64,000 nucleotides of DNA, taken from a virus. Lineage: Duplodnaviria > Caudoviricetes. Positions 1 through 61,900 of the stretch are shown one piece after another. The first letter of the stretch is position 1. Every line of letters starts with the position of its first letter. Under the pieces are notes generated by a model. The model was not told the DNA's origin. It saw only the letters and a list, made by a program, of their open reading frames with translations, and ran no database searches. The position numbers and the translations under genes were made by a program. The stretch lies in the IMG/VR virus record IMGVR_UViG_3300015608_003951, positions 32,001 to 96,000 of that record; one strand, written 5' to 3'.

Positions 1-258
1 GGGGGCATCATCATCCCGGACACCTGCGATGAAGCAGAGCGCTTCCGAAGGGGAACCGTGCTCCGAATGGGGCACCTTACCTGCGATAGCGGCGTGAAGG
101 AGGGGGACCTCGTCGTCCTGGCCGCGCAGTCCGTGCAGTACGGGTCGCAGAAGTCCGCGCACGACGGGGCTACAAAGAACATGGGCGGGGAGGAGCACCA
201 CCTGATCAAGTGGTTCGACATCCTCTTCGTGTGTGACCCTGAGGTCGAGGTCACCTTA
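1..258 (+). CDS. groES: GroES/Cpn10-like co-chaperonin (5' truncated by window; ends at TTA)
   Basis: Frame 1 reads GGIIIPDT...G.V..GDLVV...HLIKWFDILFV, typical of Cpn10. The domain ends just before TTA 256-258, which overlaps the next ATG (TTATG). Confidence 0.8.
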
Positions 259-509
259 TGCACCTGTTCTTCGAGGCCGAGCCCGGGGTGTTGGAAGTCA
301 GGTACACCTGGCTGCCCTCCTTCATCGGCCTGAACACGCAGCTGTTGAACGAGCTGGCGGTGGAGGCTGGAAAGGTGGCCGTGGGTAGGCCTCTGGACGA
401 GGCCTTGTTCCACGAGCTTGACACTCTGGCGGTTGGGATCATCACGAAGAGGCTGGCGCACGGGGCTCTTCCGGCGCTGTTCGAGGCCTTGTTGGCCCTG
501 GAGGTCTTA
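258..509 (+). CDS. hypothetical protein (ends at TTA)
   Basis: ATG is coupled to the upstream TTA. In-frame TTA 507-509 overlaps ATG 509, and the standard-code extension is low quality. Confidence 0.65.
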
Positions 510-1066
510 TGTTCAGTCAGAAAGAGGAGAAGGCCCAGTTGCCCCGAGGCATGGGCCCCAAGATTTGCGGTGCAGCCATCGCTGACATCCTCCAGCACCG
601 AAGGGTCCTAGGCCTGGGGGTTAACGCCACGGGGGAGATCCGCTACTCCATCTACCTGCGGGAGGGAGAGGCTGTGCAACCCCTGGAAGACCTGCCTCCC
701 GGGCTGGAGTCTACGGACTTCCTGCGAAGGATTCCCCGCATGGAGGAGATCTCTGCGCTGGAGCAGAGGGCTGTCTTCAACGCGTGCAGGCTGTACGCGC
801 ACGCTGCGCAGAACTGGCTGGTTCCGTTGGCTTGGGTCGCTGTGCGGGCCCCCAAGCAGGCTAGCCCGGCGAGGCCTCATCCGCTCGAAAGGGCGGACTT
901 CGACTTCCTCGGGTACCCCGGGTACCTCGGGGACGTGAACGCGGGATCCTTGTTTCTTTTGTGCGGGACGGAGCGTGGCGAAGGTGCCATGTCCGCCACG
1001 GCGTGTTTCAAGATGCAGCTTCCGAAAAACCAGGAGGAAGAGCTGTGGCCGACCTCAGTGGAGTGA
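509..1066 (+). CDS. hypothetical protein
   Basis: 185 aa ORF in a coupled operon. Confidence 0.65.
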   Translation: MFSQKEEKAQLPRGMGPKICGAAIADILQHRRVLGLGVNATGEIRYSIYLREGEAVQPLEDLPPGLESTDFLRRIPRMEEISALEQRAVFNACRLYAHAAQNWLVPLAWVAVRAPKQASPARPHPLERADFDFLGYPGYLGDVNAGSLFLLCGTERGEGAMSATACFKMQLPKNQEEELWPTSVE

Positions 1067-1548
1067 TCACCCAGTTGAGTGAGGAGTTTTCGACCAAGGC
1101 CAACCTGGCCTTTCTTCGGGCGGAGCGTCCCTTCGCAAACGAGATCGATCTCATCTTTCGCTACAAGAACATCAACGATAGGTCCAACTGGACCGTGGCC
1201 GCGCACAACATCCTCACGTCGATGCGCAGCGCGGGCCTGAGCGGGTTCAACATCCGGGCGATCCAGGGGGAATACCGCCTCAAGGAGGATGGCACGGTCG
1301 GCGTGGGGGCGGTCCTGATGGTCCAGGGTCCTGCGGAGCACCTGCCCGCCATCTTGCAGCAGATCGCCGTCTGGGTCCGCGCTACGCCTCAGGTCAAGCG
1401 GCAGCCTGCCCGATTTGTCCAGATCACGGACGACATGAGCATCTTTCGGGTGAAGCCCAACGGAGCCGGCATCGCCCCTGGGGCTGGCCACAACCCCGTA
1501 GCGGCCATCGACCGCTACAACTACAACAAAGCGCAAGGCCTGATCTGA
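1045..1548 (+). CDS. hypothetical protein
   Basis: GTG 1045 follows AGGAGG. TGATG overlap with the next gene. Confidence 0.7.
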   Translation: MADLSGVITQLSEEFSTKANLAFLRAERPFANEIDLIFRYKNINDRSNWTVAAHNILTSMRSAGLSGFNIRAIQGEYRLKEDGTVGVGAVLMVQGPAEHLPAILQQIAVWVRATPQVKRQPARFVQITDDMSIFRVKPNGAGIAPGAGHNPVAAIDRYNYNKAQGLI

Positions 1549-58660: not shown

Positions 58661-60963
58661 TGTCTCACCCGGTCATTTTCCACCGACTGCGCGCTGGTAC
58701 CTGGATCGGTTGGCAGGCGCCACCCGACAACTCCAACAGCACGCAGGTCCAGATCAACGGTAAGAACTACAACTGGATCAACGTCCTGGCGGGGGGCGAG
58801 ACCGGCAACGCTGCTGTGGCGTCCTTGGCCAAGGCCGGCGGACCCAACCAGTACACCTACTTCCTCGGCTTCGGCGAGGACGCCGTCAGCTACTTCGTGA
58901 ACAGGGCGTTCTTCGCTCTGGCGGAGAACACGGACCTTCTGGATTCGGAGCTGAACCAGGACCAGCCCGTCCACTTCATGGGCTCCTTCACGCTGGCGGA
59001 CCCTGCTAACAACGTGGAGTTTGGGTACAGCGACATCTTCCTGGGCCCCGTGGGCACTGCGCTCAACTCGGCCACGCTTCCCAAGTACTTCCGGCTGCTC
59101 AACTCCGCGTATGACGAAGTGATCGACAGCGGCACCAACCAGACCGTGCAGGTTCAGGCGATCACGGGGGTGCCCACGTCTCCGGACCCGCCGTACATGG
59201 CGGACGTGCCCCTCGTCTTCAGCCACACCCTTCCCGCAGGCACGTACTACGTGGTCTGCGGCCAGCGAAGCGCGCTGTCCACATTGCACCGAGGGGACCT
59301 GCTGCCCCACAACATGGTCAGCGCTGCGCGCACCCCGGGCGTTATCCAGACCGTGTTGCGCGCCCTGCGCGGCGACTCGCTAGGGTACCTCAGCTCCTGG
59401 GACGCTACCGTCTATGCTCTGGCGCGTCGGGGCCTCAACGGCGCCTACAACAACACCTCTATCACCCCCGCTGTGCCCAGCGGCATGTCGGCCTACGGCT
59501 ACTCTACGGACAAGGATACCGCAGGGGCTGGAGGTGCCTTCCTGCGGGAAGGCCCCTCTGTGCAGGGTCTGAGTCGTCGGCACCTCGCCTCGAACAGTCC
59601 GTACACGGACCTTTTGGGAGCTCTCTACACCGCAACCCTGCAAGACGATGACATGGGTGACGGGGTAGGGGCTGGAGAGTTCGTGTCGGGCTCCCGGGGA
59701 TTCGTCTCCGTCGGTCAGCGCATCAGGTCGCTCAACAACGGCAGCACGGCCAGCACGCCGGCTCCGGGGCTACACCACTTCGCAGCGTTCACCGCGTTCC
59801 CAGACAAGAGGTCTACAACCACATCCACCCCTACGGTCCTGAATGTCCCTGTAGGGGTGACCCTCCAGAGGGTCTCTGGCGAGGATCGGGTGACCCTCAC
59901 GACCAGCGGTAACTGGTTCACCAAGACAATCAGCGCCGTCAACCGTACGTCGCTGGTGCTTGGGTGGAGCCTGTTGGAGATCGAGTGGGTAGACCCCTCC
60001 GACCCTCTGGCACCTAACACCACGGTTCGCAGGGTCTACCGTGTGATGTCCCTCCCCACGAGCACGCGAGCTCTGGTGTGTGCGGTGGACGGCTCGGCCT
60101 CCCCCCTTCCAGCGGTGGTGCGTGTCGGGACTCTGGTTCGCGTGCTTACCCCCACCTTCGGCGTCCTGGACGGGCTGGGCGAACTGCAAGACAAGCTGGC
60201 GCACCCCAGCGCCGCCTTGTTCGAGCACGGAAGTATGGTCTGCGTCTCCCTGCCCCAGAGCACGGATGACACCGCGGACCAGGTTCTTGCCGGAGATGGT
60301 GCCTACTTTGGCGCCTCCAACAACGCGGGCACTTACGCTGCCCTTCGCTGGGGCGGCTACAGGCTGGACTTGGGGGCCAGCGGCGGTAAGTACATCGTCC
60401 ACGCCAAGCTACTCGGCGACGGCAGCATCAACTGTCGCGACATTACCTGTCAGGCCATCACCGCGGCGGATGATTGCCACTTCGACCTGCTCTTCGCCAA
60501 CGCCATCAGCGTAGTGGGCGACGTGCAGTGCTCGGACATCGATGCGAACGACATCACCTGCCTCAACATCTATTGCAGCGGCACGATCAACGGGAGCGTT
60601 GCGGCTACGGCGATGAAGATGGTGACGGCTACGAAGGTGTGCAGCACACCCGGGTCGCAGATCCTTAATCTCACCTCGGACTTCGCTAGCGCTTCCCACG
60701 TCTACGTGCGCATGACGGCTAGCCCCGTCACCTTCAACAGCATCGGCCTGCCCACCTTTGCCTCCGGAACGGTCTTCCAGATCACCTTCTTCGAGGACGG
60801 CGGCGCTGGGCAGATCGAGAGCGGCGCCTGGAGCAGCGATGTGCTGTTCGAGAGCCCCGAAGACGGACTGTTGAGCGGGGTCACCGGGTCCATCGATACT
60901 TACAAGGGCCTTGTCCTACCTAGCGGCAAAATCCTCATGAGTGTGCAGAGGTACAGCACGTTA
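58660..60963 (+). CDS. putative tail fibre protein (ends at TTA, followed by TGA)
   Basis: Thr/Gly/Ser-rich with short beta repeats near the C-terminus. TTATGA junction. Confidence 0.6.
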
Positions 60964-61580
60964 TGATCACCTCCCCGCATCGATACCGGTACGCCTGGCA
61001 AAACACGACGGGTGCGCTGCCCAACAAGATTGGCAGTGACACCCTTCAACCCGGGTCACCCGCAGCCTACGTCGGATCTGAAGTCGTGTTCAGCTGGCTT
61101 CTGACTCTGCCCGTAACGGCGTCCGGCGACTACATGGACTTCTCGGGCTCCTACCCCAGCAAGTCTTTCACGCACTCTGGCACCAAGTACCTGAACCTGA
61201 TGACCTGGCGCGCCCCTCAGGAGGACAGCCCGACGGGCCAGAACAACCTGCTCTTTACGGAGCTTACGGTCTACTTCGGCTCGGACATCACGAACGGCGG
61301 GTTCCCGACCACGGACGAAGATACGATCACGCTGCACACCTTCGACAACTCCCTCGCGCACAAGGACAGCGCGCACTTCTCCGAGGCGGTGATCATCTCT
61401 GGCAGCTCCACCTGGGGCGTGATCATCCCGCCCACTGCTGCCGCGCTCAAGACCTGCCGTCTCAACGGGGGTGGGGGGGTTAACGACCGCTGTGCCCTCG
61501 CCTTGCAGATCCAGAACACCGGAGTCTCTTCCACAACTTCGGGGGTAATCCTTCTGGTGGCCAAGGCGGTTGAGCTGTTA
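60963..61580 (+). CDS. putative virion protein (ends at TTA)
   Basis: Beta-rich. TTATG junction at 61578-61582. Confidence 0.6.
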
Positions 61581-61900
61581 TGGATTCCACGGACGTGGGT
61601 CTGTTGCTGATCTGTGCCTTCGGCCTGACGGGCTTTCTTGTCTTCCTGTTCAAGCCGGGGGCGCCTGCTCCGGGTGCGGTCGCAGCCAAGGAGCCCTCGA
61701 AAGCGGACCTGGATAAGCTCCAGCAGCAGGCCGACCAGGGCGCCAAGGAGGCGAAGGATGCCCACGACACCGCGGTGCAGGACTTCGAGGACAAGGCCAA
61801 GGCCTCCGCCCCTGCGCTGGAAGACGATACCGAAAAGCTGCTAAAGTACCTCCTGGAGGCTGGCAAAGATGTACGCACACCGACTGAAAAAGATCGCTGA
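61580..61900 (+). CDS. N-terminal TM plus coiled-coil protein (i-spanin-like)
   Basis: VGLLLICAFGLTGFLVFLF followed by a helical domain. Confidence 0.5.
   Translation: MDSTDVGLLLICAFGLTGFLVFLFKPGAPAPGAVAAKEPSKADLDKLQQQADQGAKEAKDAHDTAVQDFEDKAKASAPALEDDTEKLLKYLLEAGKDVRTPTEKDR

Follow-up and report, generated by a model that had tools for sequence, protein, structure and literature searches.

The TTATG junctions

The window analysed here is a stretch of 64,000 nucleotides (nt) from a tailed phage (Duplodnaviria; Caudoviricetes) and represents bases 32001-96000 of a single 162,306-bp IMG/VR contig (IMGVR_UViG_3300015608_003951). The contig stems from a wastewater phage, is ~87% complete according to CheckV and has a GC content of 62%. 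Our subject is the codon TTA, a sense codon in the standard code, which in this window repeatedly stands in frame at the boundary between two genes. When TTA is added to TAA, TAG and TGA as a fourth terminator, the contig holds 205 tightly packed genes, which end in TGA (113), TTA (43), TAA (32) and TAG (17), and within the window TTA closes 24 of ~70 genes. The phage is abundant in activated-sludge samples, with a word depth of ~113x in run X1, and among the public runs listed as containing it none is an RNA run. Only two tRNAs are present on the contig, one for methionine (CAU) and one of 74 nt with the anticodon UAA. Most of the encoded proteins lack a family assignment, and no close relative was found among GenBank phages by megablast and tblastn.

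An earlier note on this DNA had described seven TTATG sites, at which an in-frame TTA of the upstream gene shares its A with the ATG of the next gene, and two near-coupled sites, TTAGATG at 18833 and TTACATG at 24104. All of them are present (Table 1). At each of the seven sites, TTA is in frame with an upstream open reading frame (ORF) of the standard code, and the ATG is the first ATG, GTG or TTG of the downstream ORF. The four TGATG sites named for comparison also exist; those at 1546, 25398 and 58658 are clear junctions, whereas at 35687 the long upstream ORF probably ends earlier, at TTA 35450. When translated with the standard code, the upstream genes at 256, 507, 4912, 30187, 31053, 60961 and 61578 overlap the next gene by 76, 103, 139, 612, 25, 4 and 31 nt, respectively.

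Coding potential, scored by a codon log-likelihood model trained on long ORFs, changes frame at these sites. The upstream genes score +0.11 to +0.73 per codon, their standard-code extensions -0.47 to -1.0 and the frames opened by the ATG +0.34 to +1.05. At 256 the three values are +0.73, -0.67 and +0.62; the 203-codon extension at 30187 scores -0.48 and the ATG frame +0.39, and the 45-codon extension at 4912 scores -0.55 and the ATG frame +0.34. The geometry is that of stop/start overlaps: the last base of the terminator is the first base of the start, both genes lie on the same strand, and motifs resembling a Shine-Dalgarno (SD) sequence are located inside the upstream gene, clearly at 256, 507 and 30187, moderately at 60961 and 4912 and weakly at 31053 and 61578. 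An overlap of 1 nt with the next start was found for 8 of the 43 TTA-ended and 13 of the 113 TGA-ended genes, and gaps of 0-19 nt follow 23% of the genes in either group.

TTATG occurs 29 times in the window. The TTA is in the frame of a gene in nine cases, and in all nine the gene ends there, that is, at the seven junctions and at 40236 and 62361. The earlier note had named equally frequent NNA sense codons at such junctions as a finding that would speak against gene ends at TTA. No other NNA codon was equally common: among the junctions with this frame geometry and a standard-code overlap of at least two codons, TTA was the junction codon in 6 of 13 (binomial p = 2.6e-13 at the composition-expected frequency of TTA). 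Each of the six remaining NNA-TG junctions has a codon of its own, and five of the six are at GTG or TTG starts that are possibly miscalled.

Distribution of TTA along genes

Genome-wide, TTA was observed in frame within genes seven times, as compared with 75.5 times expected from the position-specific composition (ratio 0.09, Poisson p = 5e-24), while the next-lowest interior ratio of a sense codon was 0.37. All seven interior TTAs have a boundary-like context: what follows them is a hairpin, an ATG that overlaps in a different frame, or an ATG or GTG in the same frame, in one case with GGAGG. In 133 ORFs with a high GC content at the third codon position, TTA is the rarest codon, and it lies a median of 20 codons from the standard stop, the median for codons overall being 187. 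The distribution of ATA, ATT, AAT and TAT along the genes is normal, and ATA and CTA are in normal use. As in known code variants, TTA is absent from gene interiors despite the base composition, and the sequence behind it is either non-coding or belongs to the next gene.

The in-frame tail that ends at the following standard stop has a median length of 20 codons behind TTA and of 23 codons behind real stops (Mann-Whitney p = 0.71). Given that the tail lengths are equal, there is no selection for short tails, and ribosomes evidently do not traverse them. Since TTA is absent from interiors and closes about one fifth of all genes, the TTATG sites can be regarded as real stop/start overlaps. A comparison of the hairpin energy 3' of TTA ends discriminates weakly. 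Aside from this, the base following the terminator (+4) is an A after 5 of the 43 TTA ends and after 58 of 162 standard stops (Fisher p = 0.0025), a depletion for which we have no explanation.

Orthologous gene ends

Related contigs (L007-L013) were reached via a search with the helicase, and a related-locus search with the 1247-amino acid (aa) protein gave no match. Coding stops at TTA, and orthologs carry standard stops there. This applies to the SNF2 helicase gene, whose TTA at 40236 corresponds to a TGA in the closest relative, L010 (64% identity in the helicase, GC 67%). The 1025-aa gene closed by TTA at 24104 extends five residues from the last aligned residue to TTA, and its ortholog in L008 ends six residues past that point. 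TTA falls on the stop codons or the conserved C-termini of the homologs, as expected of a code variant with UUA as a stop. The standard-code ORF of 471 aa at 7398-8813, which spans two same-frame genes separated by TTA, gave 327 homologs in a search against 1.8 billion representatives. All 150 homologs listed are stand-alone proteins, mostly of ~215 aa, and the first residues of those listed align to query positions 255-258, which correspond to the ATG two codons past TTA 8057.

Three relatives resemble this phage. In the helicase gene of L013 (GC 45%), in-frame TTA occurs once where 8.3 are expected, CTA occurs 28 times in the same gene and ATA 41 times across two called genes; the single TTA forms a TTATG directly after ...KDDW, and homologs end there with ...KDW-stop, the conserved C-terminus of the family. 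The sole in-frame TTA in the called genes of L011 (GC 69%) is part of a GGAGG-N10-TTATG junction. The only in-frame TTA of L007 (position 8551) aligns with TTA 44578 of the window, and a hairpin with a T-run follows directly 3' there too. In L008 and L009 (~48% identity, GC 60%), in contrast, 1.6 of every 1000 codons within genes are TTA, and these are distributed evenly. Because L008 uses TTA internally at a similar GC content, the trait is lineage-specific and not a GC effect; a merely GC-driven rare codon was rejected, being contradicted by both L008 and L013.

As regards the surroundings of the helicase gene, it lies in the same frame as the InPase-domain gene, and the two are separated at 40236-40256 by TTA TGC TAG and 9 nt; the called helicase ORFs of L007 and L013 include the InPase domain too. 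In L007 and L010, TGA ends 20 of 22 genes, and both carry amber-suppressor tRNAs. The predominance of TGA in these two contigs fits an avoidance of TAG stops.

The tRNA(UAA), the RGPP leader and the PTH2 operon

The second tRNA of the contig is cognate to UUA and does not show the features of a leucine tRNA: it has a variable loop of 5 nt without a long arm, G73, U37 and a C31.C39 mismatch. A variant strain in the runs of other studies differs at the discriminator (G>A at 37928) and in the D-loop (T>C at 37872), and no anticodon change was listed. An exact search of IMG/VR with the anticodon arm gave no match. In L012, a tRNA at 11653-11726 (-) has an 8-nt anticodon loop, CCUAAAAA, and reaches 53 bits to the tRNA model, while ARAGORN gave no anticodon.

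Upstream of an operon with a gene for a PTH2-family peptidyl-tRNA hydrolase lies a predicted leader peptide in which an in-frame TTA precedes RGPP, a documented arrest motif (PMC12992588). Within 36676-36775, the leader is followed by a CTGGTT...AACCAG pairing that adjoins the AGGAG SD sequence of the gene at 36773, and the blocks CCCTGG and CCAGGAGAT of the leader region are conserved in L010. Judged from these elements, the leader and hairpin region looks like an arrest-controlled switch that would unmask the SD sequence. In L010 the leader reads MHH-[TAG]-LHRSRGPP..., the tRNA has the anticodon CUA, and the gene preceding PTH2 is closed by a TGA that lies 14 nt within PTH2, where the corresponding gene of the window ends with TTA.

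For a comparison of gates and anticodons, 50 PTH2 loci were retrieved from IMG/VR and metagenomes. A gated R(G/A)PP leader occurs together with a tRNA in ~13 loci, and none is mismatched: TAG is paired with CUA in ~10 loci and TAA with UUA in two, and TTA with UAA is found only in this phage. With a gate codon, the R(G/A)PP motif, PTH2 downstream and a matching anticodon, the locus has the complete make-up of the stop-gated arrest-leader/suppressor-tRNA module. TTA thus stands where this conserved switch otherwise has a stop codon, which makes the tRNA(UAA) its putative suppressor. The earlier note had considered the TTATG sites to be the strongest evidence for termination at TTA; in our view they rank behind the orthologs and the leader/tRNA pairing. 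In most other phages with the PTH2 module for which enough codons were sampled, TTA is a normal codon, so that the module does not by itself account for termination at UUA. Pfam searches at E = 5 gave no match for the N-terminal 100 residues of the helicase or for two proteins of unknown function in the PTH2 operon; these searches bore on the idea that a tRNase might deplete the tRNA-Leu of the host.

Further features of the window

The window also contains a gene with a PG_binding_1 domain at 6335-7381 (-), possibly a lysin, a KilA-N domain gene at 26660-27832 (+) and an HNH endonuclease gene at 44637-45698 (+). The L007 ortholog confirms ATG 44637 as the start of the HNH gene. A strong terminator-like hairpin with a 13-bp stem is located at 26610-26639, 3' of a gene ending with TTA 26579 or TAG 26603.

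Table 1. TTA-associated gene boundaries and elements of the leader/tRNA locus in the window
Feature	Position	Strand	Description
TTATG junction	256..260	+	upstream gene (from off the window start) ends at 258; next gene 258-509
TTATG junction	507..511	+	gene 258-509 ends; gene 509-1066 starts, GGAGG 4 nt upstream
TTATG junction	4908..4912	-	gene 6046-4910 ends at TTA; gene 4910-4677 starts
TTATG junction	30187..30191	+	gene ~29209/29245-30189 ends; Ig-like-domain gene 30189-31055 starts
TTATG junction	31053..31057	+	gene 30189-31055 ends at TTA; gene 31055-31444 starts
TTATGA, ambiguous	60961..60965	+	gene 58660-60963/60966, then gene 60963-61580
TTATG junction	61578..61582	+	gene 60963-61580 ends at TTA; gene 61580-61900 starts
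TTAGATG	18833..18839	+	1244-aa gene closes at TTA; following gene from 18837
TTACATG	24104..24110	+	1025-aa gene closes at TTA; following gene from 24108
tRNA, anticodon UAA (cognate to UUA)	37856..37929	+	74 nt; 51 bits versus RF00005
Leader, 18 codons, MSTLTPML-[TTA]-IHLPRGPPL-stop	36676..36732	+	predicted TTA-gated RGPP arrest peptide, upstream of PTH2 operon
PTH2-family peptidyl-tRNA hydrolase gene	37062..37382	+	upstream gene 36773-37078 ends at TTA 17 nt inside
SNF2 helicase gene end, TTA	40236..40238	+	gene 37950-40238; ...STEL + TTA here, ...SDQL + TGA in L010
Gene end, TTA	44578..44612	+	gene 43597-44580, then directly a terminator-like hairpin and T-run
TTA between same-frame genes	8055..8057	-	genes 8813-8055 and 8051-7398; fused into 471 aa by the standard code

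Discussion

The claim that the upstream gene ends at TTA and shares the A with the next start was supported by the frame switch, the depletion of TTA, the tails, the geometry, the orthologs, the stand-alone homologs that start just behind a TTA and the covariation of leader and tRNA. Taken together, these sequence data make it very probable that UUA is not a leucine codon inside the genes of this phage, that it serves as a fourth gene-ending codon in ~43 of ~205 genes, and that the TTATG sites are overlaps of the TGATG type. The upstream gene would terminate at TTA, the last A of which would be the first base of the next ATG, usually after an SD-like motif; we infer that the nascent chain is released at UUA and that initiation at the overlapping ATG follows by the same or a new ribosome. 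Release might be brought about by a host factor or an unrecognised phage factor reading UUA, or else no UUA-decoding tRNA would be available and rescue or hydrolysis, for which the phage PTH2 is a candidate, would follow. The phage tRNA(UAA) would most likely act as a low-level or timed suppressor, with the TTA gate of the RGPP leader as its conserved target.

Several points weigh against termination at UUA. We know of no bacterial release factor that reads UUA, and searches for the release factors RF-1, PCRF, eRF1_2 and bVLRF1 in the ~87%-complete contig gave no match. A phage tRNA cognate to UUA would, if efficient, read through the 43 TTA ends. A standard stop within three codons downstream is found after 21% of TTA ends and 12% of real stops, a non-significant difference, and the extra early stops could reflect leaky termination. 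The site at 60961 reads TTA-TGA and is explained equally well as an ordinary ATGA overlap, which reduces the diagnostic TTATG sites to six. The junction genes searched at the seven TTATG sites are without homologs, so that the ortholog evidence comes from other TTA ends; near-identical copies only were found for the upstream genes at 30187 and 4912, and Pfam and PHROGs searches with the junction genes gave almost no matches. Finally, the gene models used throughout are those of our own simple caller.

Among the alternatives, the one that survives best, as a possible though clearly less likely explanation, is that UUA is a hungry or unassigned codon. Ribosomes would stall there without a decoding tRNA and undergo drop-off, splitting, hydrolysis by PTH2 or another rescue, with no codon-specific release factor taking part. 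That no release factor gene was found in the contig and that the PTH2 gene is conserved beside the tRNA locus would agree with such a process, and unassigned codons are known to stop translation in Micrococcus luteus and Mycoplasma capricolum. Drop-off followed by the action of Pth has also been proposed for UUA in Streptomyces (PMC10732093). However, the PTH2 module is not specific to the trait, since phages in which TTA is a normal codon carry it as well, and without efficient release, stalling in 43 genes, among them those of very large proteins, would come at a high cost. Moreover, the trait is borne by a relative with a GC content of 45%, at which one would not normally expect a host to lack a UUA decoder.

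It is highly improbable that TTA is just an ordinary rare leucine codon, with upstream genes that extend as far as the following standard stop and with long overlaps that are genuine. The standard code is the default, a GC content of 62% predicts that TTA is rare, and the phage tRNA is able to pair with UUA. These arguments are outweighed by the non-coding codon statistics of the extensions and by the interior deficit of TTA (7 versus 75 expected), which is not shared by ATA and CTA. In addition, L008 uses TTA internally at a similar GC content and L013 avoids it even at 45% GC, the stops of orthologs align to TTA, the tails equal those after real stops, and the tRNA(UAA) is devoid of leucine-type features.

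It is equally improbable that the TTATG sites are programmed -1 frameshift sites, stimulated by a rare codon and giving rise to fusion proteins, for example with the Ig-like domain at 30189. The downstream frame is indeed -1 relative to the upstream one, and phage structural proteins reportedly gain Ig-like domains by frameshifting in some cases (Fraser et al. 2006). Hungry codons, furthermore, can promote shifts or bypassing (PMC10732093). The earlier note had named frameshifting into fusion proteins as a finding that would overturn its reading, but a slippery heptamer of the form X XXY YYZ is absent from all seven sites, and the ATG lies exactly at each junction as the first downstream start, often after an SD-like motif. 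Frameshifting would also leave unexplained the TTA ends that precede terminators, intergenic gaps or same-frame genes.

An assembly or base-calling artefact that turned TAA or TGA into TTA, as might be suspected for a contig from a metagenome, has next to no chance of being correct: contigs assembled from sequencing runs of three further studies, two on wastewater (2019 and 2025) and one on freshwater (2017), span the TTA sites at 18500-38400 and show no difference at any TTA among the rows listed for them, beyond which there are 176 further rows, 32 genes still end in TAA, and sequencing errors cannot produce in-frame specificity together with an avoidance of interior TTA.

Two other mechanisms were considered and rejected. 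A +1 slip at U-UAG or U-UAA would create a standard stop, but G or A follows only 17 of the 43 TTA ends, and TTATG gives UAU. Quadruplet decoding of UUAA by the odd anticodon loop could fuse the leader in frame to the next gene, an arrangement that we estimate to arise by chance in ~15% of cases, and found no other support.

With the reading of UUA as a terminator, the phage can be compared with several known systems. Organellar codes with UUA as a stop (NCBI table 23 of Thraustochytrium mitochondria; TTA/TTG in the mitochondria of Pycnococcus provasolii) are alike in that TTA is absent from conserved interiors and sits at the stops of homologs. They differ in that we deal here with a tailed phage on bacterial ribosomes in which TAA, TAG and TGA stay stops and a tRNA cognate to UUA is phage-encoded. 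Translational coupling by TGATG, TAATG or ATGA matches in geometry, in the frequency of 1-nt overlaps, in the SD sequence inside the upstream gene and in the tight packing on one strand, the difference being that the overlapping terminator is a sense codon of the standard code. In stop-recoded crAss-like and Lak phages, TAG or TGA is read as an amino acid with the help of suppressor tRNAs. Such phages likewise combine a non-standard code with a phage tRNA cognate to the affected codon, but the direction of change here is from sense to stop, and no special codons stand in frame inside genes. The stop-gated arrest-leader loci of other phages share the leader, the PTH2 operon and the matching tRNA, with TAG/CUA or TAA/UUA as gate and anticodon instead of TTA/UAA.

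In Streptomyces, UUA is a rare regulatory hungry codon dependent on bldA; an upstream ORF of adpA has a UUA 5 nt before the main start, and candidate bypassing has been described for a phage (PMC10732093). As in our case, UUA adjoins a downstream start, and the outcome is tied to the availability of the cognate tRNA. In Streptomyces, however, UUA encodes leucine, is read by a class II leucine tRNA, affects few genes and lies mostly within coding sequences, whereas in this phage it ends ~20% of the genes, is never interior, and is accompanied by the same trait in a relative of 45% GC. With TTA at gene ends only, and with a tRNA of 74 nt that has G73 and a 5-nt variable loop in place of A73 and a long arm, the phage does not resemble the bldA type.

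Our literature search did not find UUA as a terminator in phages or bacteria, and a change from sense to stop was found for organelles only. We consider it likely, from the comparison of the contigs, that the trait is present in a small clade of relatives with a GC content of 45-69%, and, jointly with this, that a clade of large tailed phages uses four terminators (UAA, UAG, UGA and UUA) on bacterial ribosomes, with the leader switch retuned to TTA/UAA. It would represent the first case outside organelles in which a sense codon became a stop, and termination at a sense codon on bacterial ribosomes is, to our knowledge, without a described precedent. For genome annotation it means that gene callers using table 11 mis-annotate about one fifth of the genes, with proteins wrongly extended at the C-terminus, separate genes fused and long overlaps that are spurious. 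If true, release at UUA needs an undescribed factor or mechanism. As UUA would terminate translation without a known bacterial release factor, the origin of new stops and the termination of ribosomes at one of them become testable, and the pair of TTA gate and tRNA(UAA) is a natural experimental handle for this. The pairing of gate and tRNA also hints at a reason for the presence of 'orphan' suppressor tRNAs in large phages.

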